From sequence record OP172792: DNA of 64,000 nucleotides, one strand, 5' to 3'. This document shows, one piece after another, positions 27,808 to 44,196 of the stretch (positions are counted from its first letter, which is position 1; each line of letters begins with the position of its first letter). Source of the stretch: Escherichia phage ECO340P2. The translations under genes were made by a program, and so were the position numbers. Below the pieces are notes generated by a model. It ran no database searches. It was given only the letters and a program-made list of their open reading frames with translations, and was not told the DNA's origin.

Positions 27808-27814
27808 TAAAACT

Positions 27815-27838
27815 AGGGGCTTCGGCCCCTTTTTATTG
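27815..27838 (+). terminator. rho-independent terminator
   Basis: GGGGC-TTCG-GCCCC hairpin followed by TTTTTATT. Confidence 0.6.
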
Positions 27839-27851
27839 AGGAGAATTTTAA

Positions 27852-28937
27852 ATGGCAGCAATTAATTTACACAATGAAGTTTACAAAACAGGAAAATATC
27901 CAGTATTTTTGGGGGAGCAATTAGGGATCTTTGATTCTGTTAACGTAACTTATCCAGAAATGCACAAACTCTACAAACTTCAAAAAGCACAAGATTGGGA
28001 TGAAAACGAAGTTAATCTGGATCAGACACGTAAAGATTTCGTAGCTTGTTCTAAAAACAACTATGATGTTATGATTAAAAACTTATCGTTCCAATGGGAA
28101 AATGATTCTCTTGCAAAATCAATCATCACTTTGTTCTCTCCATTCTTGAGTAACAATGAAGCCTGTGCTATGATGATGAAGCAGAGTGAAATGGAAGTTC
28201 TCCATGCGTTAACGTATTCTGAAATAATCCGTCAATGTACTCCAGATCCAATTGAAGTCATCAATCAGATTATGATTAATGATAAAATTTTCAATCGTAT
28301 GGGTATCATTGCTGATATCATGGGTCAGTTGGAAGAAGCTGGTCATAAGTATGCTCTAGGATTGATTGAAGCTAACGATGAACTTCGCTTGCTGATTCTT
28401 AAAGGGATGGTAGCCCTGATTGGATTAGAAGGTATTCAGTTTATATCTTCCTTCTCTGCTACTTTTGCTATGGCAGAACAACAACTGTTTGTTGGGGCTT
28501 GTAAACTGATCCAGAAAATTATGCTAGATGAAATCTTGCATGTTAAGATGGACTATGCTGTAATTGATGCATTGATGCATGACCCAATTTGGCGTAAAAT
28601 TTACGAAGATAATATTGAAGAGTTGACTTTGATCCTCGACACTGTTGTTGAACAAGAGGAACAGTGGTGTGACTACCTGTTTAGTGAAGGTCGTTTTATT
28701 GTAGGTCTTAACGCCGAATTGTCTAAACAGTGGGTTTATTTCAATGCTGCTCCTATTTATCGTCGATTGAAAATGAAAGCCAAGTTTAAAGCACCTAAAC
28801 ATAGTCCTTTAGCTTGGATGGAAAAATGGTTGAATCCTGATTTGATTCAGTCAGCAGCCCAAGAGATTCAGTTAACTAATTACAAATTGAATTCAGCTAA
28901 CAAAGATCTCTCTGATGATGAGGAGCTTGACTTCTAA
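27852..28937 (+). CDS. nrdB: ribonucleotide reductase small subunit (class Ia NrdB)
   Basis: 361 aa; ferritin-like helices with conserved E/H positions; acidic C-terminal tail DDEELDF; next to nrdA. Confidence 0.85.
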   Translation: MAAINLHNEVYKTGKYPVFLGEQLGIFDSVNVTYPEMHKLYKLQKAQDWDENEVNLDQTRKDFVACSKNNYDVMIKNLSFQWENDSLAKSIITLFSPFLSNNEACAMMMKQSEMEVLHALTYSEIIRQCTPDPIEVINQIMINDKIFNRMGIIADIMGQLEEAGHKYALGLIEANDELRLLILKGMVALIGLEGIQFISSFSATFAMAEQQLFVGACKLIQKIMLDEILHVKMDYAVIDALMHDPIWRKIYEDNIEELTLILDTVVEQEEQWCDYLFSEGRFIVGLNAELSKQWVYFNAAPIYRRLKMKAKFKAPKHSPLAWMEKWLNPDLIQSAAQEIQLTNYKLNSANKDLSDDEELDF

Positions 28938-29146
28938 TGATTTTGAGATGTGTTGGTATAATCGACACATTCAAAGACGTTTTTGACAAAGGGGCTTCTT
29001 ATGAAGCCTCCGAAATGAAGAATGGTTTTTGTGATGTATTCGGTAAACGCCTGAAGAAAAACGGCGATCCTTGGCTAGGAGTTATGTCTTGTGGTCATAT
29101 TATTGTAAATGGTGTTGCCAAGTTTGAAATAATTAAGGAGGAATAA
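28937..29146 (+). CDS. hypothetical protein
   Basis: 69 aa ORF overlapping nrdB stop. Confidence 0.5.
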   Translation: MILRCVGIIDTFKDVFDKGASYEASEMKNGFCDVFGKRLKKNGDPWLGVMSCGHIIVNGVAKFEIIKEE

Positions 29147-29298
29147 TGGCTGAAAAACTTATTTTTTGTCCTGTGTGTGGTGGGACTGGACAGATGGAAG
29201 TGGAAATTATGGTAACATTTCCTTGCCTGAATTGTCATGGTGAAGGACGAGTAGTAGTCTTTGAAAAAGAAGGGTTGGAGGTAGAAGATGGAGAGTGA
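29146..29298 (+). CDS. hypothetical zinc-finger mini-protein (DnaJ-type CxxCxGxG repeats)
   Basis: 50 aa; CPVCGGTG and CLNCHGEG; AAGGAGG RBS; start overlaps previous stop (TAATG). Confidence 0.4.
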   Translation: MAEKLIFCPVCGGTGQMEVEIMVTFPCLNCHGEGRVVVFEKEGLEVEDGE

Positions 29299-29452
29299 AA
29301 AAGAGTATGTCCGAATTCCACGAGAATTAACAGATCACATTGCAGAAGCAATAGCTTTCGAAGCTAGATGTTGTGGAGGCATTGCTTACGATATTTATGA
29401 AGCAATTATTAAAGCTGCTCAAGAAGAGGAGGAGATGAAAAATGGGTATTGA
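29288..29452 (+). CDS. hypothetical small protein
   Basis: 54 aa; GGAGG upstream; bridges two annotated genes with overlapping stops. Confidence 0.35.
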   Translation: MESEKEYVRIPRELTDHIAEAIAFEARCCGGIAYDIYEAIIKAAQEEEEMKNGY

Positions 29453-29768
29453 TATCGAATGGCGTATGTTACAGGGTGCACCTTTTAATAAGTGGGAAGA
29501 GGTTGTAGGAGAAGATCCTAGAATTGAAGAAGAATTTGATGGAGATTTTAACTGGTTCTTACAAGAAGGTCTTGATTTAAGTCGTATCTCTCCTTTCTAC
29601 GATGCTGATGAGTCTTATTGCATATATGGTATTTATTTAGAAGGCGGAGAAGGAAGCGTAGCTGTAGATCTTGAGCAAGTAAATGAGAATGCAAAAGAAG
29701 CCTATGCAGAGCTACTTGAAAAATATAACATTAAAACGGAAACTATTATTTCTCAACACGTCTGGTAA
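29442..29768 (+). CDS. hypothetical acidic protein
   Basis: 108 aa ORF. Confidence 0.55.
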   Translation: MGIDIEWRMLQGAPFNKWEEVVGEDPRIEEEFDGDFNWFLQEGLDLSRISPFYDADESYCIYGIYLEGGEGSVAVDLEQVNENAKEAYAELLEKYNIKTETIISQHVW

Positions 29769-29777
29769 GGAGAGAAA

Positions 29778-30344
29778 ATGAAAGTAGAAAAAACAAAAAT
29801 TGAAGGTGCGGTAATTATCAAACCAGACGTTTATAAAGATGATCGTGGTTTCTTTTTAGAAACATACAATGAACAAAAATACGAAGATATCATTGGTAAA
29901 CAAACTTTCGTTCAAGATAATATGTCTAAATCAAACTTCGGTGTTTTGCGAGGAATGCACTTTCAAACAAATAACCCGCAAGGTAAGCTTGTTCGTTGTG
30001 TAAGTGGAGAAGTATTGGATTTCGCTGTAGATTTACGTAAAGATAGTCCAACTTACGGTGCTTGGGACGGTGTTGTTCTTCGTGCACGACACCATACGCA
30101 GTTTTGGCTTCCCCCTGGTTTGGCACATGGTTTTATAGTTTTGAGTATGGACGCTATCTTTGAATACAAATGCACAACTCCATACGACCCTTCTAGCGAA
30201 CAAAGTTTACGTTGGGATGATCCTGACATAGGGATCGATTGGGGCTTCGATATGATTTTTGACGAAGGTTTTAAACCTATCTTATCAACAAAAGATGCAA
30301 TGGCTAAATCTTTTCAACAGTTGCGTAGTGAGGGTGTATGCTAA
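29778..30344 (+). CDS. rmlC: dTDP-4-dehydrorhamnose 3,5-epimerase (RmlC-like cupin)
   Basis: 188 aa; FxETY...GVLRGMHFQ block and size match RmlC/RfbC. Confidence 0.75.
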   Translation: MKVEKTKIEGAVIIKPDVYKDDRGFFLETYNEQKYEDIIGKQTFVQDNMSKSNFGVLRGMHFQTNNPQGKLVRCVSGEVLDFAVDLRKDSPTYGAWDGVVLRARHHTQFWLPPGLAHGFIVLSMDAIFEYKCTTPYDPSSEQSLRWDDPDIGIDWGFDMIFDEGFKPILSTKDAMAKSFQQLRSEGVC

Positions 30345-31180
30345 CATATCTGGTATTGGGTGGTAATGGACAACTGGGACAAGCTTTACGTAAAGTGGTT
30401 CCTTCAAATGTATCTTTAATTTATCCTAAAGAACGTGTAGATATTACAAATTTTGAAGCTGTGCGAAACGCTATTGTTGAAGATTATGTAGACGGTGTTA
30501 TTAACTGCGCTGCTTATACGGCTGTAGATAAAGCAGAACATGATTTTGCTACTGCTTTGGCTGTTAATGCGTATGGACCTGCAAATATTGCGGCAGTGTG
30601 CAGCAAACTTAAAATTGATTTTGTGCATATTTCTACAGACTATATTTTTAATTATTCTCACCCTATTTTTGAAGATACTACACCTAACCCAATAAACAAT
30701 TATGGGTATACGAAAGAACTTGGTGAAAAAATGGTGCGAGGAGTTAACCCAAATGCATATATTATTCGAACAGCCTCGGTATATAGCGAATTTGGAAATA
30801 ACTTTCTAAAAACGATGTTGTCTCGCTATAACGATGGACAACGTGATTTTATTATTGTTGCTGATCAGTTCTCTTGTCCAACATATGCTCCAGATTTAGC
30901 AGAAGCTATTTTTGAAGTATTAAAAACAGGTTGGTCAAGGTCTGTTAAGACTTACCATTTTGCAGGAAGCCATTTTATTTCTTGGGCGGAGTTTGCGGAA
31001 AAGATCTTGACACAGATGCCAGAACCTGTTAAGATATCGGCGGTATCAGCTTCAACCTATAATGCTCCAGCAGCACGTCCGGTGAAGTCACAACTAGTAA
31101 CCAGTCACTACCTTACAAAATCAGATTTAAATAAAGGTATTGAACAGTCTTTAGCAGTATTACTTAATAAGGAGAGGTAA
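30338..31180 (+). CDS. rmlD: dTDP-4-dehydrorhamnose reductase (RmlD-like short-chain reductase)
   Basis: 280 aa; N-terminal Rossmann LVLGGNGQLGQAL; YxxxK-type context; adjacent to rmlC. Confidence 0.7.
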   Translation: MLTYLVLGGNGQLGQALRKVVPSNVSLIYPKERVDITNFEAVRNAIVEDYVDGVINCAAYTAVDKAEHDFATALAVNAYGPANIAAVCSKLKIDFVHISTDYIFNYSHPIFEDTTPNPINNYGYTKELGEKMVRGVNPNAYIIRTASVYSEFGNNFLKTMLSRYNDGQRDFIIVADQFSCPTYAPDLAEAIFEVLKTGWSRSVKTYHFAGSHFISWAEFAEKILTQMPEPVKISAVSASTYNAPAARPVKSQLVTSHYLTKSDLNKGIEQSLAVLLNKER

Positions 31181-31440
31181 TGGAATTTGTAATTTTTGGT
31201 AAACCTAACTGTCAATTTTGCGAAATGTCAAAACAACTATTAACCATGCGCAATAAACAGTTTGAATATTTAAGTCTTGATCAAGACTATGATTTAGAAT
31301 CAATGACTAAAACAGTTGTTGATCTTACCGGAGTTCCTCCACGCACATTTCCACAAATTCTGTCTGAAGTGAACGGGGAGGTAACATACGTAGGCGGTTT
31401 TACCGAACTGCGTGATCTCATGGCTCAAATTGCGGAGTAA
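31180..31440 (+). CDS. glutaredoxin/NrdH-like redoxin
   Basis: 86 aa; N-terminal FGKPNCQFC (CxxC active site) in thioredoxin-fold context. Confidence 0.7.
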   Translation: MEFVIFGKPNCQFCEMSKQLLTMRNKQFEYLSLDQDYDLESMTKTVVDLTGVPPRTFPQILSEVNGEVTYVGGFTELRDLMAQIAE

Positions 31441-31445
31441 CAATT

Positions 31446-31595
31446 ATGAAAAGTAAACAGAAACGTAAGATCTTTTCTCGTGCTTTGGCAAATGAGCTGA
31501 AGTCCAACATAAAGAAAACGAAACCAAAACGTGAAACTTCTCCAGAACATCTGTTGTTTAACGAGTTGGATCACGGAGTAGGAGACGACGAATAG
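31446..31595 (+). CDS. hypothetical small basic protein (49 aa)
   Basis: ATG 5 nt after previous stop; fills gap before lysozyme; weak RBS. Confidence 0.35.
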   Translation: MKSKQKRKIFSRALANELKSNIKKTKPKRETSPEHLLFNELDHGVGDDE

Positions 31596-31602
31596 GAAGT
31601 AA

Positions 31603-32103
31603 ATGGCTAAAGTAGTAGATGAGTTTGATATGCTACGAGTCGATGAAGGACTGAAGCTTACTGTTTATCAAGACCATCTTGGTTATTGGACAGTCGGCAT
31701 AGGACACCTTCTGACTAAAATAAAAGATAAAGCAAAGGCTATTCAAATCTTAGATAATCTTCTTGGTCGTAAGACTAATGGAGTTATTACAGAAAAAGAA
31801 GCCCGTCAAATCTTTGCTGACGATGTTGCAAAAGTGAAGAGAGACATAAAAAACAGTACTATCTTATCACCAATCTATGATAAGGTTAGTGATACTCGTA
31901 AATTGGGAATAATCAACATGGTTTTCCAGTTGGGGTTAAAAGGTGCTGAAGGGTTTCAAAATAGCTTGACTTTAATCAGCAATGCATATTATACTCAAGC
32001 AGGTAAAAACATGCGTAAAAGCCGATGGTATAGCCAGACGCCAAACCGTGCTGAACGAGTAATTAAAGTTCTGACTTCTGGAACTTTAGATGCTTACAAC
32101 TAA
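31603..32103 (+). CDS. endolysin, T4-type lysozyme (GH24)
   Basis: 166 aa; EGLKLTVYQDHLGYWTVGIGHLL matches the T4 lysozyme catalytic region. Confidence 0.85.
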   Translation: MAKVVDEFDMLRVDEGLKLTVYQDHLGYWTVGIGHLLTKIKDKAKAIQILDNLLGRKTNGVITEKEARQIFADDVAKVKRDIKNSTILSPIYDKVSDTRKLGIINMVFQLGLKGAEGFQNSLTLISNAYYTQAGKNMRKSRWYSQTPNRAERVIKVLTSGTLDAYN

Positions 32104-32140
32104 TAAAGGGGCTTCGGCCCCTTCTAAAAGGAGTGCTACT

Positions 32141-32899
32141 ATGGGAAATAAAACCGCAGCTAAAACACAACGGCAGAAACTGGCTAATTCAGCAAAGATT
32201 GAAAGCCGTTATGCAGCAAAAGCGGTAGGTAATGACGATTACCGTTTAGATGAATTTATGCCTGAAGGGGACCAAAATAAGATTGTTCAAAGCATGATTT
32301 GGAATGATCTGACTGTTGTAAATGCTCCGGCAGGGACTGGTAAAACCTCTGTTGCTTTATGGAAAGCTTTGCAGATGCTTCGTTCAGGAGACTTCCGTAA
32401 ACTACTTTTTATCAAGAACCCTACTGAAGTCGGAGATGATCAGATTGGTTTCTTGTCGGGGGATAAAACAGATAAACTAGCAGCACACTATGAATCTACA
32501 AAACGTATTTTCCAGCAATTCATGACAGCCAACAAATTGGAAAACGATATTGGATCAGGTAAGATCGAATTGAATATTCCTAACTATTTGTTAGGGGCTA
32601 CCCTGGATAATACAATTGTCATTATTGACGAAGCACAACTTATGTCAACAGAAACACTTAAACTTCTTATTGAACGTGCAGGTATTAATACGCATGTTAT
32701 TGTATTAGGCGATGTTCGCCAGACATATGCAATTAAAAAACGTAGCAATGGTCTGCATCAAATTTTGGAACTTTTATATCCAGAAAATGAAGAAGGTGTT
32801 CGTGAGCCAATTGTAGATTTTATTGGATACGTTGAACTGACAACGGACGATAATAAACGTGGACGTTTGTCTAAACTGATTACTGAAGTGTTTATTTAA
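32141..32899 (+). CDS. phoH: PhoH-like ATPase
   Basis: Walker A PAGTGKTS, Walker B IIDEAQ; ATG after AAGGAG (ORF-track start 32090 overlaps lysozyme). Confidence 0.75.
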   Translation: MGNKTAAKTQRQKLANSAKIESRYAAKAVGNDDYRLDEFMPEGDQNKIVQSMIWNDLTVVNAPAGTGKTSVALWKALQMLRSGDFRKLLFIKNPTEVGDDQIGFLSGDKTDKLAAHYESTKRIFQQFMTANKLENDIGSGKIELNIPNYLLGATLDNTIVIIDEAQLMSTETLKLLIERAGINTHVIVLGDVRQTYAIKKRSNGLHQILELLYPENEEGVREPIVDFIGYVELTTDDNKRGRLSKLITEVFI

Positions 32900-32931: not shown

Positions 32932-33435
32932 TTGATGGGTGTAGCAACAATAGCTATCGGAAGAAGCGGTATAGATGAGTGCTATCAAACGGGACTCGTA
33001 AAACCTAACGAATTTCGTCAAATTTGTGTAAACCATATTGAAAAAGAGATTGCTCTTACTTTAGAGAATATGACCCTCCGAGATAAACTGGAAATGTTTA
33101 AATGTTGGTGTCTAGGAGAAGATTGGCTTTTAAACCATTTTCAAGAACTTTCTGATAGTAAAGAAAGCTTGTTTGATTGTATAATAGGAATAGCTGGCTC
33201 CGATCCTACCCTTCTGCACATAACAGAAGAAGAGGCGAAGTTACTGTTCTTAAGTAATTTGTTTAATAAGAAAGCACTGCTTGTTCGTGATTGCAGTGAT
33301 CTTCTTAATAACCCGCTCGCAACGTCTGATCAAATTTTTGTTGACAAAGAGACACTACGTGCGATAGAATACATCTGCAAATATGTGAATGGCGGGAAAG
33401 CGGTTCTTAAAACATTAACAGAGGAGGAAGAATAG
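32932..33435 (+). CDS. hypothetical protein
   Basis: 167 aa ORF, RBS AGGAGG. Confidence 0.5.
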   Translation: MMGVATIAIGRSGIDECYQTGLVKPNEFRQICVNHIEKEIALTLENMTLRDKLEMFKCWCLGEDWLLNHFQELSDSKESLFDCIIGIAGSDPTLLHITEEEAKLLFLSNLFNKKALLVRDCSDLLNNPLATSDQIFVDKETLRAIEYICKYVNGGKAVLKTLTEEEE

Positions 33436-34127
33436 TGACGACAATTATTGCAACCAAAAATAAGATTTTGAGTGACGGTAAGGTAACTTTTGGTGGACGT
33501 GTAGATTCTATTAATTTCAAAAAGGTCCGAAAAATTGGAGATTACCTTGTAGGTGGTGCTGGTCGTCTGACCTCCGTGCTTTCTTTCTTTCAATGGTTTG
33601 AACAAAATCTACAGTGCGAAGCAGCACGTGATGCTGTCCCTGGTTTGATGATTCACTCTGATCCAGATAAAGAAGATGAAGAGTTTATTGCACTTGTTGT
33701 TCATCCAGACGGACGTATTTTCCTGCACGAAGGTAACAACCCAACACGTGCATATCCGATTGATGAAGAATATTATGCAGTAGGGAGTGGGTCAGATTTT
33801 GCTTTAGCTGCTCTTGATGCAGGGGCAACACCAGAACAGGCTATGGAAGTAGCTAAAAAGCGAGATGCTTTTTCTGGTGGTGAAACATTTATTGAAGAAC
33901 AAGACGAGATTATTGAATTAACAGATGATGATTTAGAAAACTTCTCCAAAGAAGAATTGATCAATCTTTTGAAATTCGGTAATCCCTACGGTGAAGAAGA
34001 ACCTCGTAACGTGGCAGGTAACGAGGCGGATACTGAAGAAAAATCTGTTGCAGAAAACAACTTGACTTCTAAATCTGAAAATATTAATCTCGTAAATGTG
34101 GCGGATTTCGAAGGAACCGCTATTTAA
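33435..34127 (+). CDS. HslV-like N-terminal nucleophile peptidase (proteasome beta-type fold) with acidic C-terminal tail, GTG start
   Basis: mature N-terminus TTIIA, KVRK, VGGAG and AVGSGSDFALAA align with recalled E. coli HslV blocks. Confidence 0.65.
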   Translation: MTTIIATKNKILSDGKVTFGGRVDSINFKKVRKIGDYLVGGAGRLTSVLSFFQWFEQNLQCEAARDAVPGLMIHSDPDKEDEEFIALVVHPDGRIFLHEGNNPTRAYPIDEEYYAVGSGSDFALAALDAGATPEQAMEVAKKRDAFSGGETFIEEQDEIIELTDDDLENFSKEELINLLKFGNPYGEEEPRNVAGNEADTEEKSVAENNLTSKSENINLVNVADFEGTAI

Positions 34128-34172
34128 CAAACTGCCCCTTCGGGGGCATTTCTTAAACATAGGAGATTAATA

Positions 34173-35597: not shown

Positions 35598-35792
35598 ATG
35601 CAGAGCGGAGAAGAACTTTTAGAGAAACAATTCTCAACGCGTCAACAAGCTTTAAGTTATATGGTTTTTCTAAGCAATCTTGATGTGAATGAGATACTTT
35701 TACGGCGCGAAGGTAATTTCTGGAGCGTTAAATATCATGCAACAAGGTCTGTAATCTACCTAGAAGAGGCGGAATTCTCTTTGGTAGAATGA
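35598..35792 (+). CDS. hypothetical protein
   Basis: 64 aa ORF, RBS AAGGAGGG. Confidence 0.5.
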   Translation: MQSGEELLEKQFSTRQQALSYMVFLSNLDVNEILLRREGNFWSVKYHATRSVIYLEEAEFSLVE

Positions 35793-35806
35793 TCCGAGGA
35801 GTAGTT

Positions 35807-36379
35807 ATGCGTTCAACTTTCACTGGCAAAATAAATGCTGGTTTGATTTTTACAGCAGTAAGCATTCTTAGCAAAAAGTTTAAAGTTGTTAACTTACCTG
35901 TGTGTGTCGATTTCGATCATGTTTTTGATCCTTCGAACCCCACTCGTTGCATAGTAAGGAGTAATGTTGAAAACCCAACAGAAAATCTTTTTTATGTAAC
36001 AAAACCATCTCAAAGCATACTTAACCAGGTTGAGGCGAAATTGATACCTAACGGTAAATATTACTCCTTTTTACCTTGTAAGTCGGTTGAAGTAGAGAAT
36101 AGCAATACTTTCGCTAATAACTTGTCTGTATTCGTTTTCTTTGTTTCACAGGAAGACGAAACAGATGAAATGGTAGCAACAGTGAGATCACTTTATGACT
36201 CTTTAGGGGTTGTTTATAGTCAACAAGTGTGCGAAAATAATAAAGCCTGTGTAGATTTCATTATCAACGGTATTTGTGTTTGTAGAGTAGAATCTTTTTG
36301 GCTGCACGATACATATGTGACTGTAGCAGAGGTTATATCTGAACCAAGATTTAGTCATGCGGTTTCGTTAATAATTTGA
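35807..36379 (+). CDS. hypothetical protein
   Basis: ATG after GAGGAG; ORF-track start 35789 overlaps upstream gene. Confidence 0.5.
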   Translation: MRSTFTGKINAGLIFTAVSILSKKFKVVNLPVCVDFDHVFDPSNPTRCIVRSNVENPTENLFYVTKPSQSILNQVEAKLIPNGKYYSFLPCKSVEVENSNTFANNLSVFVFFVSQEDETDEMVATVRSLYDSLGVVYSQQVCENNKACVDFIINGICVCRVESFWLHDTYVTVAEVISEPRFSHAVSLII

Positions 36380-36389
36380 GGAGGAAGGA

Positions 36390-36719
36390 ATGGAAATTAC
36401 TACAGAACAAGCCCTTATCGACGAGGGTCGTAAAATCTTAGAAAAGTATTTAGGGGAGATTCATAAAACCCCTGGCTATTTGGGTTGGAGAATTGTTGAA
36501 GCTGTAGATTTCCTTCCTCGTAACAGTAAAAACGTCGAAATGCGATCTCTTTTCTTATTAGTAAAGGTGGATGGGGATACGCCTTTTAAAGATGCCGCAG
36601 AACATATTGAAAAAGTTGAAGAGAAAGCTTATGCAGAATTTGCCGATCTTGTTTTAGAACAAGAGATTGAAGGAAAGGTGAATATTTTTATTTTCTTAGA
36701 TTTTGAGGAGGATAAGTGA
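36390..36719 (+). CDS. hypothetical protein
   Basis: 109 aa ORF, RBS GAGGAGG. Confidence 0.5.
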   Translation: MEITTEQALIDEGRKILEKYLGEIHKTPGYLGWRIVEAVDFLPRNSKNVEMRSLFLLVKVDGDTPFKDAAEHIEKVEEKAYAEFADLVLEQEIEGKVNIFIFLDFEEDK

Positions 36720-37459
36720 TCATACACAGAGAAATTACTGTTAAAAGCGATCAAGATCTTTTTATAATTGGAGATCTACACGGTTGTTATAATTTGTATG
36801 AAAAAGGAAAGGCAAAGTTAGGTATCCGAGATACAGATGTGGTTGTATCTCTAGGAGATCTTACTGACCGTGGAAAGCAAAACTTTCGTTGTGTTTTAGA
36901 ATTTACTCGTAAACACAATCGCTACGCTATTCGTGGCAATCATGAAGACATGATGATTAAAGGTATGCTGGAAGGAGATCGTAGCTACTACGAGTGTTGG
37001 TATCAAAATGGAGGATATACGGTCTTTGAAGAATGTGGTGAAGAAGGAGCTACAGCCTTAGCAATGATGACAGAAGATTTACCTGTTGTTCTCATTGTTA
37101 ACTACAGAGGCATGAAACTTGCGTTTATTCATGGTGGGTATCCATCTTCTTTGGAATATCTCCCTGTAACAGATATTCCAGAATACATTTCGAAGATGAC
37201 AAAAACACAGGAAAACCGTTTTGCTGAAGCACTTATGTGGGACAGAGATATGGTAGACTGTGCTAAAGAGGGAATGAAACTTCCTGTTGTGATGGGTGTG
37301 GATTATGTGTTTCATGGACACTCTTATGTAAAAACACCTATTATCAATGCGAATCGTGTTTATATGGATACTGGATCTGTGTTCAATAATAACTTAACAT
37401 TTGCTTATTTCGATATGGACGGTGGTCTTCAATTTTATTCAACTCTTGAGGAGGATTAA
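36716..37459 (+). CDS. Ser/Thr protein phosphatase (PPP-family metallophosphatase, lambda PPase-like)
   Basis: GDLHGC, GDLTDRG, RGNHE motifs in canonical order. Confidence 0.75.
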   Translation: MIIHREITVKSDQDLFIIGDLHGCYNLYEKGKAKLGIRDTDVVVSLGDLTDRGKQNFRCVLEFTRKHNRYAIRGNHEDMMIKGMLEGDRSYYECWYQNGGYTVFEECGEEGATALAMMTEDLPVVLIVNYRGMKLAFIHGGYPSSLEYLPVTDIPEYISKMTKTQENRFAEALMWDRDMVDCAKEGMKLPVVMGVDYVFHGHSYVKTPIINANRVYMDTGSVFNNNLTFAYFDMDGGLQFYSTLEED

Positions 37460-37767
37460 TGTATAAGATTACAATTATTCAAAGTGTAGGTAATATCCGT
37501 AAAGAAGTTATCTTAGAAACAGAAGATGTTAATCTTGTTCGTGAGATTGTTCTTAAGGAAGATAACCTGCAAGCTGTAGAATCAGATGCACCGAATCTTA
37601 TGGTGGATCAAGAATATTCTGAACTTCGTCGTATTTTTGAAGAGATTCAGAAGAAAGAAACACAACCTACCATAAAACCTTTTGGCCCTTATGATCCGAG
37701 CAATCCTAGCAGTCCTTGGATCATGAGAAATACGGAACCCTATACACCTTTTGAAATTACTTGTTGA
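37459..37767 (+). CDS. hypothetical protein
   Basis: 102 aa ORF. Confidence 0.5.
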   Translation: MYKITIIQSVGNIRKEVILETEDVNLVREIVLKEDNLQAVESDAPNLMVDQEYSELRRIFEEIQKKETQPTIKPFGPYDPSNPSSPWIMRNTEPYTPFEITC

Positions 37768-37774
37768 GGTGATT

Positions 37775-38356
37775 ATGGCAGAACTGTTCTATACGGGAGT
37801 TGGAAGTAGAGACATATCCGAAGAAGAGTGGGCTTTGATGGTAGGTATAGGGAAATGGCTTTCAAACCTTGGGTTTAAATTAAGGTCTGGGAAGGCAGAG
37901 GGTAGTGATTCTGCTTTTGAAACAGGTGTCCAAGAGTCTGAAAATCCTACTAACAAGGAGATTTATGTTCCTTGGGAAAATTTCAAAGGTAATCAGATTC
38001 CAGGGGATGTTATTGTTCTTGCAAAACCAGATACAATGAACTATGCTATCTCTGTGCAGTGGATCAAAGATGTTCACCCAGCCTATGAAAAGCTTAAGCA
38101 GGGTGCCAGAAAATTGCACCAACGTAATGTGCATCAAGTGTTAGGTAGAGATTTGGAGAATCCTGCTCCATCATGTTTCTTGTTGGCTTGTGCTAATACT
38201 GATAAACATGGAGATGCAAAAGGTGGAACAGCTACGGCTTGGAAGATAGCTAAAGCCAATAATGTTCCTTGTTTAAACATTCGTGGGAAAACAAAACAAG
38301 AGATTTACGATTTTCTACGACCTTTGGTAATGAGGGCAATAACAAGTGATTCCTAA
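37775..38356 (+). CDS. Rossmann-fold protein, DprA/SLOG-like
   Basis: YTGVGSRD ... LRSGKAEGSDSAFETG resembles DprA/LOG-type nucleotide-binding loops; ATG after GAGGTGA. Confidence 0.4.
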   Translation: MAELFYTGVGSRDISEEEWALMVGIGKWLSNLGFKLRSGKAEGSDSAFETGVQESENPTNKEIYVPWENFKGNQIPGDVIVLAKPDTMNYAISVQWIKDVHPAYEKLKQGARKLHQRNVHQVLGRDLENPAPSCFLLACANTDKHGDAKGGTATAWKIAKANNVPCLNIRGKTKQEIYDFLRPLVMRAITSDS

Positions 38357-38858
38357 ACGTAAACGTGGTGAACAAAGAACAAACTTGGCAGAAATCTTAG
38401 ATTACAACATGGTTAATGATGTGACAAAAGAAATTCTGCCTGTTGTAGAAGATATTCTTCAAAGAGGATTACGATTCTGCTCGGATCGGGTGCATTTCAT
38501 GTGGACACATAAAAGTGACTCCGCTTTGAATTTCTATCCTTTGGATTATACTCTGAACAATACAGAGATGAAAGATATCAACAAATACTTAATGGGATAT
38601 AAAGATATAACCGAAACCGTTCTTGGAGAATTGGCAGAAATCTTGGCTAACGATATCCTTAGAAATATTAATAAGGCTCTTGACAGAAGCCCAGCAGGAG
38701 TAGTAGTATCTTTTGCTGTGCCAGATATGGTTAAATATGAGTCTACAATACCTAATAAAGCTTATGCCTTTCTTCGGAGAGACGTTCGTGGAAATGTGTT
38801 GGAGATGGAGTCAAACTACAAGATTGAGGAGGTTTTATGGCAGAGTTCGGATCAGTAA
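38346..38858 (+). CDS. hypothetical protein
   Basis: 170 aa ORF. Confidence 0.5.
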   Translation: MIPKRKRGEQRTNLAEILDYNMVNDVTKEILPVVEDILQRGLRFCSDRVHFMWTHKSDSALNFYPLDYTLNNTEMKDINKYLMGYKDITETVLGELAEILANDILRNINKALDRSPAGVVVSFAVPDMVKYESTIPNKAYAFLRRDVRGNVLEMESNYKIEEVLWQSSDQ

Positions 38859-39127
38859 CAAGTTTTGAAAGTAACTTCGTTACCGCTTGGGAAGCTTGGG
38901 ATGAAATGGGTGTTGGTGAACTTTATTTTTACAATGTAACACTACGTCCAGAGTATGCTTATCTGGTACCAGAAGGAACAGTTCAAATTGGCATGTATCT
39001 GTCTTCTCAAGACGGTGTTGTTCAATTTGAGTTTTATTCAAACACAACGGACAACGAATTTACATATCGTGCATTTCATGTCAACATGTCTTTAGGAGAG
39101 GAGAAATTTTATGACGACCAAGTTTAA
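38837..39127 (+). CDS. hypothetical protein
   Basis: 96 aa ORF. Confidence 0.5.
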   Translation: MAEFGSVTSFESNFVTAWEAWDEMGVGELYFYNVTLRPEYAYLVPEGTVQIGMYLSSQDGVVQFEFYSNTTDNEFTYRAFHVNMSLGEEKFYDDQV

Positions 39128-39308
39128 AACAGTAGAAGAAGCCGTAAAAGCAGCTTATGAGGCTTTAGCGGAAGCAGAGCAGTTAGCAGATGAGACTGGT
39201 AAAGGTTTCCGTTTCTCCCCTGAATATGGGATGGGTGGCTATTATGATCCAGAAGATGAAAATGAGAATACTGGAACAAATTGGCATCCATCTTCTTTAA
39301 GTTGTTAA
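39111..39308 (+). CDS. small protein, WxSS..C C-terminal family member 1
   Basis: 65 aa; ends GTNWHPSSLSC. Confidence 0.5.
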   Translation: MTTKFKTVEEAVKAAYEALAEAEQLADETGKGFRFSPEYGMGGYYDPEDENENTGTNWHPSSLSC

Positions 39309-39319
39309 TAGGAGGTAAA

Positions 39320-39595
39320 GTGGGAATCGAAGATATCAAAGGTTATAAGGCGCATACTGACGATAAGATTGGCAAGGTTAACGCTATTAAAGATGCAGAA
39401 GAGCGTTTAGGTTTAATCTTCAAAGCTTTAGAGGAAGAGTATTGTGAAGCATATCATGGGTCTTTTGACGGCACAGAAAAAGAATTAGATTTTGCATACG
39501 AACGTATTGATCAAATCCGTTGTGCTATTAAACATTTAAAAGAAGCTAGTATGTGGGCTTGTCGTTCAGTTTTCCAACCAGAGGAGAAATATTAA
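39320..39595 (+). CDS. hypothetical protein, GTG start
   Basis: GTG 4 nt after AGGAGG; ORF-track TTG start at 39281 has no RBS. Confidence 0.4.
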   Translation: MGIEDIKGYKAHTDDKIGKVNAIKDAEERLGLIFKALEEEYCEAYHGSFDGTEKELDFAYERIDQIRCAIKHLKEASMWACRSVFQPEEKY

Positions 39596-39813
39596 TGAGT
39601 GATCGTAATGTTGAAGAATTAACTGAAAAAGCCCAAGCTATTATGGCTTTAGTTGACGAACTTACAAAAGAAGCTGAAGATGCTGGTTTTGGTCTTAGTT
39701 TAGAAGATAATGCAATCTGTTTTGAAGATTGGCAATCCTCTTCTTGTTATGGTGAAGGTGACGATGGTTTCGTTGTTAATTCTCAAGGCGTTTGGCACAG
39801 TAGTAGCTGTTAA
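39595..39813 (+). CDS. small protein, WxSS..C C-terminal family member 2
   Basis: ATG after GAGGAGA; ends GVWHSSSC. Confidence 0.5.
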   Translation: MSDRNVEELTEKAQAIMALVDELTKEAEDAGFGLSLEDNAICFEDWQSSSCYGEGDDGFVVNSQGVWHSSSC

Positions 39814-39822
39814 GGAGAGATT

Positions 39823-40095
39823 GTGGAGTCTGAAGGCGAACTGCTGATAAAAAAGAAAGTTAAAGAGATGGAACAAGCACAAAGAAAGTTTCGTAAAGAG
39901 ATTGAAGAACTTTGTGAACAATTTCAGGAACAAGCTTGGATTGGTGACTATGATAATGGAGAAACTTATTACCCTACCGGAACACCAGCCGCAGACCACT
40001 ATATTGACTTTATTTGTGAAGATTATGGTGTAGAGTTAGATGAAAATGGTTTAACCACAAGAGGTGTTTGGGTCTCTTCTTCATCAATGTGTTAG
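39823..40095 (+). CDS. small protein, WxSS..C C-terminal family member 3, GTG start
   Basis: ends GVWVSSSSMC; RBS AAGGAGAG. Confidence 0.5.
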   Translation: MESEGELLIKKKVKEMEQAQRKFRKEIEELCEQFQEQAWIGDYDNGETYYPTGTPAADHYIDFICEDYGVELDENGLTTRGVWVSSSSMC

Positions 40096-40104
40096 TAAAT
40101 AATA

Positions 40105-40126
40105 ACCCGCTTCGGCGGGTTTTTTA
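40105..40126 (+). terminator. rho-independent terminator
   Basis: ACCCGC-TTCG-GCGGGT hairpin followed by TTTTTTA. Confidence 0.6.
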
Positions 40127-40155
40127 TTGACAGAGATAGGGAAGCTTGATAAACT
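40127..40155 (+). promoter_or_regulatory. sigma70-like promoter (TTGACA-17-TAAACT)
   Basis: abuts terminator T-tract (TTTTTATTGACA), same arrangement as at 21717. Confidence 0.4.
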
Positions 40156-40185: not shown

Positions 40186-41127
40186 ATGGTGTTAATTGGT
40201 AGCCGTGCATTACAAATTCATGCTATGGATATGGGAAAAGACTTGTATCGCCCTTGTGTAGATTTAGATTACCTGTGTACAGAACAAGAGTGGGAAGAAT
40301 TATCAAAAATGTTCTCTCAAGAGGAGTTTGTTGAACTTGTAGAACGTAAAGGGAACAAGGGCCATGTCAAAATGATAGCTGGTGCACATTTGGAATACGA
40401 TATTGCTTCTCAAGGAGATAGCACAGAAGCTTTGATTAGTTATTGTGAAGAGTCTGATGATATTCGTCGAACTTACGCTGGACATGTTGTTGCTCCTTTA
40501 GATGTGCTCTACCTTCTTAAAATGAGTCATCGTTTTAAAAAGGATAGTCCTCACTTCTTTAAAACTATGAAAGATATTCATTTCATGCGATCACTGGGCG
40601 CAAAGATCCCAGAAAATCTTAAGAGTATTTATGAGTTGCGTGAGAAAGAAACATACACTTACTCTCATCCAAACTTAAACGTAAAAAGTAAAGACTTCTT
40701 TAAAGGTGATGAGGTTCCGTATGTTTATGATCATGATTCTATCCACGAAGCCATTGCGGTAATGGATGCTCCAGCATATAAATCTTATATGAAAGATGGA
40801 AGTGAAGTTATGACCAGCAAAGAAAAGTTTTTTGCTCAACCAAAACATGTGCGCCTGTTAGGTGTTTATGAAGAAGCGTGTGTTTTGGCTTTGGAACGTT
40901 CACAAATTCCTTTCGGTGAAGAGATCGGAGGTCCAACACCTAAGCAAAGTTTTATGATGGCTTTATCTAAAGTTTGCACATCCATTACTAGTGGTTGGTT
41001 TAGGGAATATGCCTGGGAGAACTTTTACGTTGTTACTAAACTATATGAAAACATGGGTGAAAACGACTATGTTGAACGTTTTAAAGCTAATCGCCATGTA
41101 GTAAAGCCTTTTGAAGGAGGTTATTAA
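40186..41127 (+). CDS. hypothetical protein
   Basis: 313 aa ORF, RBS AGAGGAG. Confidence 0.55.
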   Translation: MVLIGSRALQIHAMDMGKDLYRPCVDLDYLCTEQEWEELSKMFSQEEFVELVERKGNKGHVKMIAGAHLEYDIASQGDSTEALISYCEESDDIRRTYAGHVVAPLDVLYLLKMSHRFKKDSPHFFKTMKDIHFMRSLGAKIPENLKSIYELREKETYTYSHPNLNVKSKDFFKGDEVPYVYDHDSIHEAIAVMDAPAYKSYMKDGSEVMTSKEKFFAQPKHVRLLGVYEEACVLALERSQIPFGEEIGGPTPKQSFMMALSKVCTSITSGWFREYAWENFYVVTKLYENMGENDYVERFKANRHVVKPFEGGY

Positions 41128-42910: not shown

Positions 42911-43396
42911 ATGTTTCAAGTAAATGTCAATGTGCATAATAGTTACTCTGATTGTGAAACGTGTGGCTATAGTTCATCTAATGTTGTTCGTATCAGTGGT
43001 GATTTGGGAGAAGCTTCTTTTGGAGAAGAAGCAAGTTGCTTTAGCGGTATGGATGCAGAATGGAATGATATTGCACATTGGTTGGTGAGCAAACTAAAAG
43101 AAAAAGAGAAACCATTTCCTACTCTGCTTGATCGTTCTCTTGTAGAAGACGCAGGTAAAGCCTATGCAGATTACGCTTATGCAGATGGGAAGTACTTGGA
43201 AGATGACAAGGCTAACCATTTGCTTTATGTTTACTATGAAGCTGAAGCTGCCTATGATAATTATTATAGTATGTCCAATATCTTACGGCTATTTGCAGAG
43301 TTTGATATCTATTTTGAAGTAGAGTTTTCAGAAGATGATACTTACGAGTATGATTCTTATGATCCATTTGAGGAGGAAGAATGCCAAGACGAGTGA
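42911..43396 (+). CDS. hypothetical highly acidic protein
   Basis: 161 aa; Asp/Glu/Tyr-rich C-terminal half; 3' end overlaps the Sir2 gene start. Confidence 0.5.
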   Translation: MFQVNVNVHNSYSDCETCGYSSSNVVRISGDLGEASFGEEASCFSGMDAEWNDIAHWLVSKLKEKEKPFPTLLDRSLVEDAGKAYADYAYADGKYLEDDKANHLLYVYYEAEAAYDNYYSMSNILRLFAEFDIYFEVEFSEDDTYEYDSYDPFEEEECQDE

Positions 43397-44196
43397 TTTT
43401 TGTAAGTGGTGCAGGTTTAAGTGCAGACAGTGGGATTCGAACATTCAGAACAGACACAGATAGCGGTCGTGCTTTATGGGAAGAATACGATTTAGAAGAG
43501 GTCTGCAATATTGGAGCTTTCCAAGCAGGTTATCGTGTGAGAACATCTCCAGATCTTCCGGTGGTTGGAGGTGTAGACGAGAACGGTATAGATTTATATG
43601 CCAAAACACACGAATTTTATAACAAAAGACGTGTTGAGCTTAAAAACGTACAACCTAATGCTGCGCATCTTCAAATAGCCAAATGGTTTAAGGAATATCC
43701 TAACCAGGTAGTAAACTTGACAACAAATGTCGATGATCTACTAGAGCGAGCAGGGGTAGACAGGGACTCGGTTGTTCACGTGCACGGTTATCTTCCTGAA
43801 GTAGTCTGCCGTATGCACCCTGGAGATTACAAAACACTGGTGGATATTGGTTACAATAGTATAAACATAGATGATTATAACTGGGTGAAGCCTAATGTAG
43901 TCTTCTTTGGGGAAGCTGCTCCACTTTACACGGATATGTATCATATTTTTGATACATTGACGTCTCAAGATATGGTGATTGTAGTAGGCTGCTCTAATCA
44001 AGTTATCAATTTTAACTGGGAGCTTTTTCCTGCTCTTAACATCGGGACAAAAATGGTCGTAGTTAATCCAGGAGTTAATTACGAAGAAACACTTCTCTAT
44101 GAAGATCGTGGAGTTTTTGTTTACCGAGAAAAAGCTGTAACAGCCTTCAGTAATGAAGGTTTCATTAAAATGGTCGAAGACCACTTAAACAAATAA
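43381..44196 (+). CDS. Sir2-family (sirtuin-like) NAD-dependent protein
   Basis: N-terminal VIFVSGAGLSADSGIRTFR matches the sirtuin NAD-binding signature GAGxSxxSGIPxFR. Confidence 0.7.
   Translation: MPRRVIFVSGAGLSADSGIRTFRTDTDSGRALWEEYDLEEVCNIGAFQAGYRVRTSPDLPVVGGVDENGIDLYAKTHEFYNKRRVELKNVQPNAAHLQIAKWFKEYPNQVVNLTTNVDDLLERAGVDRDSVVHVHGYLPEVVCRMHPGDYKTLVDIGYNSINIDDYNWVKPNVVFFGEAAPLYTDMYHIFDTLTSQDMVIVVGCSNQVINFNWELFPALNIGTKMVVVNPGVNYEETLLYEDRGVFVYREKAVTAFSNEGFIKMVEDHLNK

Follow-up and report, generated by a model that had tools for sequence, protein, structure and literature searches.

The locus considered here raises the question of whether a lambda-type phosphatase gene and, two genes downstream, a gene for a DprA-like Rossmann protein act together or merely adjoin one another, and what role the second protein would then fulfill. 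The window, i.e., the whole 64,000-nt stretch of DNA that was analyzed (Escherichia phage ECO340P2, record OP172792), belongs to a Phapecoctavirus (phAPEC8-like E. coli myovirus), and phage ECO340P1 in GenBank is 100% identical to it. Three ORFs are concerned, all on the plus strand, at positions 36716-37459, 37459-37767 and 37775-38356. Numerous GenBank and RefSeq entries for this phage genus already carry both gene labels, phosphatase and DprA-like. The genes, the family assignments and the ADP-ribose (ADPr) hypothesis are already published, and the window itself yields nothing new.

Locus architecture and the phosphatase gene

The phosphatase and SLOG genes are predicted to lie inside a single early/middle transcription unit, long and densely packed, at approximately 34.2-40.1 kb. 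Its probable upstream limit is a terminator-like GC hairpin with a T-run on the plus strand (34133-34148), and its probable downstream limit is a second terminator-like hairpin of the same strand (7 bp, 5 GC, T-run; 40104-40121), just after which a promoter-like site, TTGACA...TAAACT, is found at 40127-40155.

The first gene (36716-37459, plus strand) encodes a 247-aa metallophosphatase of the PPP family, lambda-PP-like (NinI-like) according to Pfam, PHROG and the alignment to 1G5B. Its GTG start and the stop of the preceding ORF (36390-36719) overlap. A Shine-Dalgarno sequence, GAGGAGG, is located 4 nt upstream of this GTG (36705-36711, plus strand), so that the long ORF is preferable to the RefSeq annotation, which is truncated at its 5' end. 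The Pfam Metallophos profile matches the product at 2.7e-13 (51.2 bits, with a cut-off of 21.5 bits), and phrog_246 ("NinI-like") does so at 1.8e-75. The alignment with the lambda phosphatase 1G5B (E 5.5e-27) spans residues 10-230 and brings the metal-ligand motifs into register. The PPP motifs appear in the expected order, GDLHG (19-23), GDLTDRG (47-53), GNHE (74-77), FIHGG and FHGHS, and all of them align to 1G5B. These matches, well beyond chance, identify the product as a lambda-PP-type PPP phosphatase, and this part of the original prediction is borne out.

Comparison with the lambda Ser/Thr phosphatase (NinI/ORF221, 1G5B) reveals full-length alignment, the same metal-binding motifs (GDxHG, GDxxDRG and GNHE, followed by the later His and GH), a common size class and a phage-borne origin in both cases. 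The present product differs from it by an insertion of about 25 aa around residues 140-165, and from E. coli PrpA/PrpB in that it falls under the NCBIfam equivalog cut-offs (94 vs 326 bits). The predicted activity is that of a Mn-dependent Ser/Thr(/Tyr) phosphatase of the lambda-PP type. The second gene (37459-37767, plus strand) is a 102-aa ORF, assigned to phrog_15301, its first nucleotide being also the last of the phosphatase stop codon (1-nt overlap); searches in Pfam, NCBIfam and PADLOC gave no match for it.

Fold and family of the downstream SLOG protein

The third gene (37775-38356, plus strand) encodes a SLOG-superfamily Rossmann protein of 193 aa, which stands alone and falls into the DprA clade (PHROG 768), as indicated by PHROG, AF2 and Foldseek. 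The ATG at 37775 is favored over a TTG at 37751 because a Shine-Dalgarno-like GAGGTGA is located just 5' of it (37766-37772, plus strand); in the family alignment, the homologues start at this same position. Single-sequence searches of Pfam, NCBIfam and the PDB returned nothing useful, so that profile- and structure-based methods were needed. The phrog_768 profile, labeled "DprA-like DNA recombination-mediator", matches the protein over its full length with E 2e-62 (residues 2-182, profile positions 2-180 of 191). The AF2 model, with a pLDDT of 95.1, adopts a Rossmann fold with the strand/helix order b1-a1-b2-a2-b3...a-b-a-b-a. In Foldseek searches of the PDB, the Rossmann domain of H. pylori DprA is the first match (E 1e-4, TM 0.52), followed by a MoCo carrier, ShosA (8zva), LOG and YpsA; the top matches (DprA, MoCo carrier, LOG, YpsA and ThsA-SLOG) are all SLOG members. 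Model and alignment together display the features of the SLOG superfamily, namely a three-layer alpha/beta Rossmannoid with Gly-rich, GxD/E and GG(T/S) loops.

The glycine-rich loops are invariant across the family (G10/R12, R37-G39-A41-G43-D45 and G150-G151-T152), and these residues form the invariant pocket together with W67, H115, R117, N118, Q121, S133 and T154. The DprA/LOG-like loop had originally been proposed on weak motif-level evidence, which the profile-level and structure-level matches now upgrade; no unrelated family was assigned to the protein by the profile search.

The relationship to DprA can be followed residue by residue. PF02481 (DprA) is matched by 35 out of 40 SLOG homologues, mostly below threshold and with a best E of 2.6e-7, and the protein encoded here scores 12.7 bits against a gathering threshold of 29.6 (E 0.07, residues 9-52 only). 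In a joint MAFFT alignment with five DprA Rossmann folds the phage family is collinear, and it shares with the DprA Rossmann domain (4LJK/5MLL, 3UQZ) the strand/helix order and the motifs GSR, SGxAxGxD, xRN and G(G/S)(T/S)xxTA. In this alignment R12 corresponds to R52 of H. pylori (Hp) DprA and R115 of SpDprA, and R117/N118 to the DprA "RN" motif, with R117 at the position of Hp R143. The ssDNA-contacting arginines of Hp DprA are R52, R143 and R170 (PMC12961424). Since R12 and R117 are invariant, two of the three are kept; the R170 position is not conserved, being K157 in the phage protein and N in the family consensus. The conserved arginines are as compatible with plain ssDNA binding as with the ADPr-related role proposed below. 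Two further comparisons with DprA were made: hhalign of the family against a thin five-sequence DprA profile aligned the first 47 N-terminal columns only (probability 64%), and the isoelectric point is not discriminating, with a family median of 7.75 and values of 6.6 to 9.3 for DprA Rossmann domains.

In SpDprA, E235, D243 and E265 form the RecA-binding acidic triad and I263-D275 the dimerization zone (Lisboa 2014, PMC4066776). On the sequence alignment alone, this triad is not kept in the phage protein, where K157 replaces E235 and P165 replaces D243, and the segment comprising E265 and the dimerization zone is missing from the phage family. Neither the family alignment nor the AF2 model contains an N-terminal SAM domain, and strand 1 begins at residue 4, which leaves no space for a further N-terminal domain. 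The phage protein therefore differs from DprA in being without the SAM domain and the C-terminal Rossmann segment that bears the dimerization zone, and also in its own invariant residues (W67, H115 and Q121), in two loop insertions and in a TM of only ~0.5. Because the SAM domain, the dimerization zone and the acidic triad are missing, the product is, judging from its sequence, no orthologue of DprA, and its designation as a "recombination mediator" lacks support.

As for the other SLOG families, none of 40 family members matches LOG (PF03641), YpsA (PF06908) or YspA (PF10686). The LOG signature is PGGxGTxxE and includes a catalytic Glu. The phage sequence reads KGGTATAWK, with Lys157 at the Glu position (Asn in the consensus); a LOG-type hydrolase was rejected on account of the missing Glu and of the lack of a PF03641 match. 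The YpsA structure 2NX2 was matched by Foldseek with E 1.3e-2, vs 1e-4 for DprA, and viral YspA models give a TM of ~0.44, vs ~0.8 inside the protein's own family. Membership of the YpsA/YspA-YAcAr group was likewise rejected, given the absence of profile matches and the greater structural closeness of DprA. PADLOC returned weak matches to the antitoxins ShosA and PsyrA (for ShosA, E 0.02 over residues 9-47 only), which have in common with the phage protein the DprA-type Rossmann fold and the conserved GSR/RN arginines. ShosA is a DprA-like antitoxin that requires its SAM domain, dimerization and RecA binding (PMC12961424), whereas the phage protein is without those parts.

Fusions and neighborhoods of the SLOG family

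PHROG 768 is present in 1468 of 50,697 phage records, i.e., in approximately 3% of sequenced phages, and the SLOG family comprises 5936 clusters at 50% identity. Among the top 150, fusions were found to NADAR (n = 4; P0121, P0123, P0138 and P0226), to DUF4326 (n = 1; P0210) and to MazG (n = 1). Such fusions are rare, these roughly six being the ones that could be named within that set. NADAR strips ADP-ribose off guanine in ssDNA and acts as a phage anti-DarTG1 factor (PMC11543638; PMC11825919).

Gene neighborhoods were sampled from 80 IMG/VR loci, representing 35 lineages that are not mutually independent. In 6 of the 35 lineages the SLOG gene is preceded, at a distance of about 1 kb, by a Macro-domain gene, an association that may trace back to only about three phage groups. 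NAMPT is found nearby in five lineages and Prs in four, in varying gene order (Prs-NAMPT-Macro-SLOG in L062, SLOG-Prs-NAMPT in L055), with Pfam as confirmation of these neighbors. Genes of generic nucleotide and DNA metabolism account for a large part of these neighborhoods, including PhoH (10 lineages), RNR, ThyX, dCMP deaminase, ligases and helicases; a shared "auxiliary metabolism" module may therefore explain part of the co-location with NAD genes.

These links are the same as those described by Iyer, Burroughs, Anantharaman and Aravind (2022, PMC9503650), who predicted that viral SLOGs process ADP-ribose derivatives: stand-alone phage SLOG proteins enriched in larger phages, as here, with NADAR/DUF4326 fusions and Macro neighbors, a correspondence that holds at the family level. 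Most viral SLOGs were placed by these authors in a "YpsA-like clade", while in the present analysis DprA outscores YpsA/YspA. It is most likely that PHROG 768 and their viral SLOGs are the same family. The literature search found no experimental paper on any phage DprA-like/SLOG protein; the NARP3 paper proved to be unrelated, as the PHROG 768 family is not mentioned there.

In the phage studied here, a SIR2 gene is present in the window, and phmmer searches of the genome detect Macro and DUF4326 homologues and none of NADAR, NAMPT or Prs. Macro and DUF4326 are encoded at a long distance from the SLOG gene, and of these genes SIR2 alone is nearby in the window.

Proposed role of the SLOG protein and its relation to the phosphatase

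The reading that best accommodates these data, held with roughly even confidence, is that the locus contains two independent accessory genes, the SLOG protein serving NAD+/ADP-ribose counter-defense. The protein keeps the nucleotide/ssDNA-binding pocket of DprA (GSR arginine, SGxAxGxD, RN helix and GGT loop) and appears to have shed the RecA-loader parts (SAM domain, dimerization zone and acidic RecA-binding triad). Most likely it would bind, and possibly cleave, a ligand bearing ADP-ribose; candidates are soluble signals or by-products of the ADPr type and, on single-stranded nucleic acid, bases modified with ADP-ribose. Catalysis is uncertain, because the LOG-type catalytic Glu is missing. 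In this role the protein would belong to a counter-defense toolkit together with Macro, DUF4326 and SIR2 proteins whose genes lie at other sites of the genome, and it probably takes part in resisting NAD/ADP-ribose-based bacterial immunity. The original prediction of a link to signaling nucleotides and defense is plausible for the SLOG protein alone, being indirectly supported by the NADAR/DUF4326/MazG fusions, the Macro/NAMPT/Prs neighbors and the published proposal (PMC9503650), and does not extend to the pair. If this function were established, the protein would represent a possible added component of phage counter-defense against NAD-based immunity.

It is rather unlikely that the existing annotation is correct and that the protein acts as a DprA-like ssDNA-binding recombination mediator or auxiliary SSB, loading recombinase on phage ssDNA. 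Among Pfam families and solved structures DprA is indeed the closest, two of its three ssDNA-binding arginines are invariant, DNA ligases, helicases and PolA occur in some contexts, and this role was suggested for a jumbo-phage copy by Iyer et al. (2021, PMC7824862). However, the score against PF02481 remains below the cut-off, the SAM domain is lacking, the acidic triad and the dimerization zone are absent or replaced, no recombinase or SSB is found among the recurrent neighbor families that could be named, and the fusion partners are nucleotide/ADPr enzymes rather than recombination proteins. The absence of the RecA-loading parts, taken together with a family context that indicates ADP-ribose/NAD+ conflict, suggests that the "DprA-like DNA recombination-mediator" label, applied everywhere by annotation pipelines, is over-transferred. 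Pinning down the function of PHROG 768 would correct thousands of annotations.

A more specific form of the counter-defense reading, which we consider distinctly unlikely as it stands, is that PHROG 768 proteins are readers, possibly erasers, of ADP-ribosylated single-stranded nucleic acid, countering DarT-type DNA ADP-ribosylation with NADAR, Macro or DUF4326 partners, either fused or separate. In this case the DprA-derived ssDNA pocket may have been re-tooled for an ADP-ribosylated base, and a family carried by ~3% of sequenced phages would constitute a widespread, unrecognized counter-defense component.

A nucleotide-pool enzyme unrelated to immunity, LOG-like or a deoxyribosyltransferase-like N-glycosidase on free (d)NMPs that would serve the nucleotide-metabolism module of the phage, is quite improbable. 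RNR, ThyX, dCMP deaminase, glutaredoxin and PhoH genes often adjoin, a MazG fusion exists, and LOG is a SLOG member found among the structural matches; against this, the LOG Glu position is occupied by K157 (consensus N), no LOG Pfam match is obtained, and the NADAR, DUF4326 and Macro links indicate ADP-ribose rather than dNMP pools.

That the phosphatase and the SLOG protein constitute one module, for example with the phosphatase acting on the SLOG product or target, appears very improbable. The two genes are transcribed in the same direction, probably as part of one operon, with one small gene between them, and 4 of the 35 lineages have a PPP phosphatase gene in the 6 kb upstream of the SLOG gene, in the same orientation. 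This frequency is approximately the chance rate for a single-copy gene in a genome of ~150 kb and a 12 kb window, the distance ranges from 0.3 to 5.7 kb, and no phosphatase-SLOG fusion was seen across the 35 lineages. The remaining 31 lineages, as well as all seven annotated GenBank contexts outside this subfamily, are without a nearby phosphatase. Since the association occurs at about chance frequency, the functional pair originally proposed is not supported. In the distant locus L066, the 102-aa ORF is also directly upstream of the SLOG gene; L066 has a wider gene order in common with the window, so the phosphatase adjacency there is likely inherited synteny. Consistent with two independent accessory genes, the phosphatase adjacency would represent a lineage-specific gene order rather than a two-component system.

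Finally, a phage copy of ShosA/PsyrA that neutralizes ShosTA/PsyrTA defense is extremely unlikely: orphan antitoxin-like enzymes, AdfN being one, are known from phages (PMC11825919), and the DprA-like antitoxin ShosA (8zva; PMC12961424) is among both the structural and the weak PADLOC matches, but the latter span only ~40 N-terminal residues, all three properties that ShosA needs are lacking in the phage protein, and ShosTA would not account for the much wider distribution of the family.

Family and fold of the SLOG protein

As a single query, the product of the ORF at 37775-38356 (+, 193 aa) gives a sub-threshold match to Pfam DprA (12.7 bits) and none in NCBIfam or the PDB, and it matches PHROG 768 ('DprA-like') over its full length (2e-62). 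Of 276 relatives found by homologue search, nearly all are about 180-210 aa long and come from large phage contigs; at 50% identity, an exhaustive profile search yielded 5936 clusters. In a 40-sequence alignment, the blocks YTGVGSR, LRSGxAxGxDxAF, LHxRNxxQVxG and GGTATA are invariant, and its members match PF02481 in 35 cases (best E 2.6e-7), SLOG cluster 4 in six, and LOG, YpsA or YspA in none. The top PDB matches of the family profile are the DprA structures 3MAJ and 3UQZ, both weak. With the AF2 model (pLDDT 95.1, pTM 0.91), Foldseek ranks H. pylori DprA (HpDprA) first (E 1e-4, TM ~0.52), followed by the MoCo carrier protein, ShosA, TT1887/LOG, YpsA and the ThsA SLOG domain; against viral models, TM is ~0.8 within the family and only ~0.44 for the YspA/DUF2493 phage SLOGs. 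These profile, Foldseek and viral-model comparisons place the protein in the SLOG superfamily, closest among characterised proteins to the DprA Rossmann folds, and the PHROG 768, PF02481 and HpDprA matches bear out the DprA/SLOG-like identity originally predicted.

Fusions, neighbourhoods and the likely ligand

Fusions were counted among the best 150 of the 5936 relatives, so that their frequencies are rough. The longer proteins in this set are fusions, joining NADAR to SLOG (P0138, P0226), DUF4326 to SLOG (P0210) and SLOG to MazG (P0261); in giant polyvalent proteins (P0121, P0123), the PHROG 768 SLOG is accompanied by YAcAr and LDcluster4 SLOGs and NADAR. Other fused members carry uncharacterised extensions, phrog_2072 and phrog_9995. 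For neighbourhoods, ORFs were called crudely (longest ORFs, greedy, non-overlapping) and clustered in 80 IMG/VR loci, representing 35 lineages at ≥60% SLOG identity that are not independent of each other; genes within 6 kb were counted by lineage, and names were confirmed with Pfam. The commonest neighbour is PhoH (10/35 lineages), followed by an HslV-like peptidase and a Macro domain (six each, the latter at a median of ~1 kb upstream), and by a small methyltransferase and NAMPT (five each). The order RNA ligase, AAA_33, Prs, NAMPT, Macro, small ORF, SLOG is found in the Pakpunavirus-like contigs L060 and L062, SLOG-Prs-NAMPT in L055, and NAMPT, one ORF, SLOG in L019; Prs is a neighbour in 4/35 lineages. 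The Macro/NAMPT association may reflect only three or four phage groups.

The phage itself encodes a Macro protein (7e-43 to SLOG-adjacent Macro proteins of other phages) and a DUF4326 protein (3.5e-13 to the DUF4326 part of the DUF4326-SLOG fusion). Their genes lie outside the window, at 3689-4162 and 145539-145907 (Macro listed first) of NC_052654.1, from the same phage species, and their respective labels, 'phosphatase' and 'ribonucleotide reductase NrdA-like', look misleading. A SIR2 gene (43381-44196, +; Pfam SIR2 1.6e-24), located 5 kb downstream of the SLOG gene and within its + strand block, may be an NAD-linked partner; in the other lineages, SIR2 was not among the recurrent neighbours, and no NADAR, NAMPT or Prs homologues were found in the genome of this phage.

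Fold, conserved pocket, absent DprA parts, fusions and neighbourhoods are established for PHROG 768. Since the invariant residues all lie at the C-terminal strand ends and the RN helix, which form the canonical SLOG ligand site, a single conserved pocket would be expected to hold one nucleotide unit. As the partner enzymes process ADP-ribose (ADPr) or salvage NAD, the likeliest ligand would be an ADPr-bearing molecule, either soluble or on single-stranded nucleic acid; the nucleic-acid-borne form would reconcile DprA ancestry with the NADAR fusions. NADAR is known to remove ADP-ribose from guanine in ssDNA (PMC11543638), and the NADAR gp30.3/AdfN of T4 defeats DarTG1 (PMC11825919). The protein might only bind its ligand, serving as a sensor, a sponge or a targeting module, or might cleave it as well: the LOG catalytic Glu is absent, but H115, Q121, W67 and D45, which are invariant and particular to the family, could contribute to catalysis. 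Overall, the chance that the protein has an ADPr-bearing ligand is put at about even.

The ADPr hypothesis for viral SLOGs has already been published. In their survey of viral NAD+/ADPr systems, Iyer et al. 2022 (PMC9503650) describe stand-alone SLOG domains, with enrichment in the larger phages and with links to Macro, NADAR and DUF4326 through co-occurrence or fusion; the role predicted for them is the sensing or cleavage of ADPr derivatives produced by host immunity. No experimental study of PHROG 768 was found in the literature search, and the interest lies mainly in what this phage family, very common and probably wrongly labelled, may do.

Comparison with DprA and ShosA

When the phage family is aligned jointly with the Rossmann domains from E. 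coli Smf, 3MAJ, 3UQZ (S. pneumoniae DprA, SpDprA), ShosA 8ZVA and HpDprA 4LJK, the motif blocks follow in the same linear order. R12, the arginine of GSR, aligns with HpDprA R52 and SpDprA R115, the LHxRN block with the DprA signature FPxRN (R117 with HpDprA R143), and GGTATA with SGSLxTA. The ssDNA-binding residues of DprA include R52, R143 and a third, R170 (PMC12961424, PMC4066776), which, unlike the other two, occupies a position not conserved in the phage protein. Moreover, the SAM domain is missing, as strand 1 starts at residue 4. Sequence alignment, rather than structural superposition, indicates that, of the RecA-binding acidic triad of SpDprA, E235, D243 and E265 (PMC4066776), the first two are replaced by K157 and P165, while E265 and the dimerisation zone I263-D275 belong to a C-terminal Rossmann segment absent from the phage family. 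With hhalign, the family aligns to a thin DprA profile over the first 47 columns only (E 6.4e-5, probability 64%). On this evidence, PHROG 768 is homologous to the nucleotide/ssDNA-binding core of DprA and is not a DprA orthologue; a 'RecA mediator' function is unsupported.

A plain ssDNA-binding or recombination role would agree with the two shared arginines and with the earlier description of the jumbo-phage copy as DprA/Smf, a possible extra ssDNA-binding protein (Iyer et al. 2021, PMC7824862). In annotated GenBank records, the SLOG gene separates the two halves of an NAD-dependent DNA ligase in pVp-1, follows RNA ligase 2 in Merlin and nrdD/nrdG in Vequintavirinae, has an ATP-dependent DNA ligase and helicase nearby in Nankokuvirus, and encodes gp207 in phiKZ. 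The recurrent neighbours that could be named include neither a recombinase nor an SSB, and this role is considered unlikely. A nucleotide-pool enzyme is somewhat less probable still. ThyX (5/35 lineages) is a further recurrent neighbour, as are RNR, dCMP deaminase, glutaredoxin, CCA-adding enzyme, RNA ligase, PolA and PIF1 helicase. ShosA, a DprA-like antitoxin, depends on a SAM domain, on dimerisation and on binding to both ssDNA and RecA (PMC12961424), and the proposal that the phage protein is an antitoxin mimic is very improbable.

The phosphatase and the surrounding gene block

The ORF at 36716-37459 (+, 247 aa) matches Pfam Metallophos (51 bits) and phrog_246 'NinI-like' (1.8e-75); its best NCBIfam matches, E. 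coli PrpA and PrpB, fall far under their equivalog cut-offs. Lambda phosphatase 1G5B aligns to residues 10-230 (5.5e-27), with the GDxHG, GDxxDRG, GNHE and later His motifs in register. As the motifs indicate, the product is an ordinary lambda-type PPP phosphatase, in agreement with its predicted identity. The RefSeq CDS (NC_052654.1, L009 27706-28215) is 5'-truncated to 169 aa and would drop the GDxHG and GDxxDRG metal-binding motifs; other records use the full ORF, whose GTG start is preceded by a strong GAGGAGG ribosome-binding site.

The region 35700-39200 is 100% identical in Escherichia phage ECO340P1 and at least 99% identical in 48 other records of Phapecoctavirus (Stephanstirmvirinae; E. 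coli myoviruses of ~150 kb). The labels 'NinI-like serine-threonine phosphatase' and 'DprA-like DNA recombination-mediator protein' are present in many records of the genus, and the finding is therefore a re-discovery. The phosphatase ORF, a 102-aa phrog_15301 ORF (37459-37767, +) and the SLOG ORF, whose ATG is preceded by GAGGTGA, overlap or nearly abut. A block of ~16 small, tightly packed genes is flanked by two strong terminator-like hairpins (34133-34148 and 40104-40121, the latter followed by a promoter-like site), so the phosphatase and SLOG genes are probably co-transcribed.

The original prediction had further suggested that the two might modulate host phosphosignalling or break down signalling nucleotides. 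A PPP phosphatase lies near the SLOG gene in 4/35 lineages, approximately the chance expectation for a single-copy gene with a 12 kb window in a 150 kb genome: lineage 0 (2/9 loci, 3.3-5.7 kb away), lineage 1 (Phapecoctavirus), lineage 7 (1/2 loci) and lineage 25 (locus L066). In L066 the adjacency is probably inherited, since the wider order PhoH-HslV-...-SLOG-methyltransferase is shared with the window. No phosphatase-SLOG fusion was seen. We conclude that the adjacency is incidental, a functional pair being highly improbable; the protein identities stand and a nucleotide role is plausible, while the pairing is not sustained. The phrog_15301 ORF also lies directly upstream of the SLOG gene in L066 (5623-5982), whose SLOG is <60% identical to that of the window, and may be a lineage-specific partner.

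Upstream of the block lie a PhoH-like ATPase gene (32090-32899, +), PhoH being usually just upstream of the PHROG 768 gene where the two are neighbours, and an HslV-like peptidase gene whose product has an acidic C-terminal tail (33435-34127, +). The label 'histidyl tRNA synthetase' on a 196-aa ORF (35789-36379, +; phrog_4806, 3e-64) finds no Pfam or NCBIfam support, is also carried by a second gene elsewhere in the genome, and is doubtful. Three tandem acidic ORFs (39111-39308, 39553-39813 and 39823-40095, +; 65, 86 and 90 aa), with ~32% mutual identity and the motif G(T/V)W(H/V)xSS..C at the C-terminus of each, are a small paralogous family at the end of the SLOG/phosphatase operon. Directly after the terminator/promoter pair (40104-40155), a 313-aa DUF7277 + DUF7275 protein (2.8e-76) is encoded at 40186-41127 (+). 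The + strand block that holds the phosphatase and SLOG genes also contains a dTDP-rhamnose pathway (~27000-31500, +; locus L001, 1-1481) comprising an RmlA-like thymidylyltransferase, 3,5-epimerase, reductase and epimerase/dehydratase, which, together with four glycosyltransferases elsewhere in the genome, could serve surface or DNA sugar modification.
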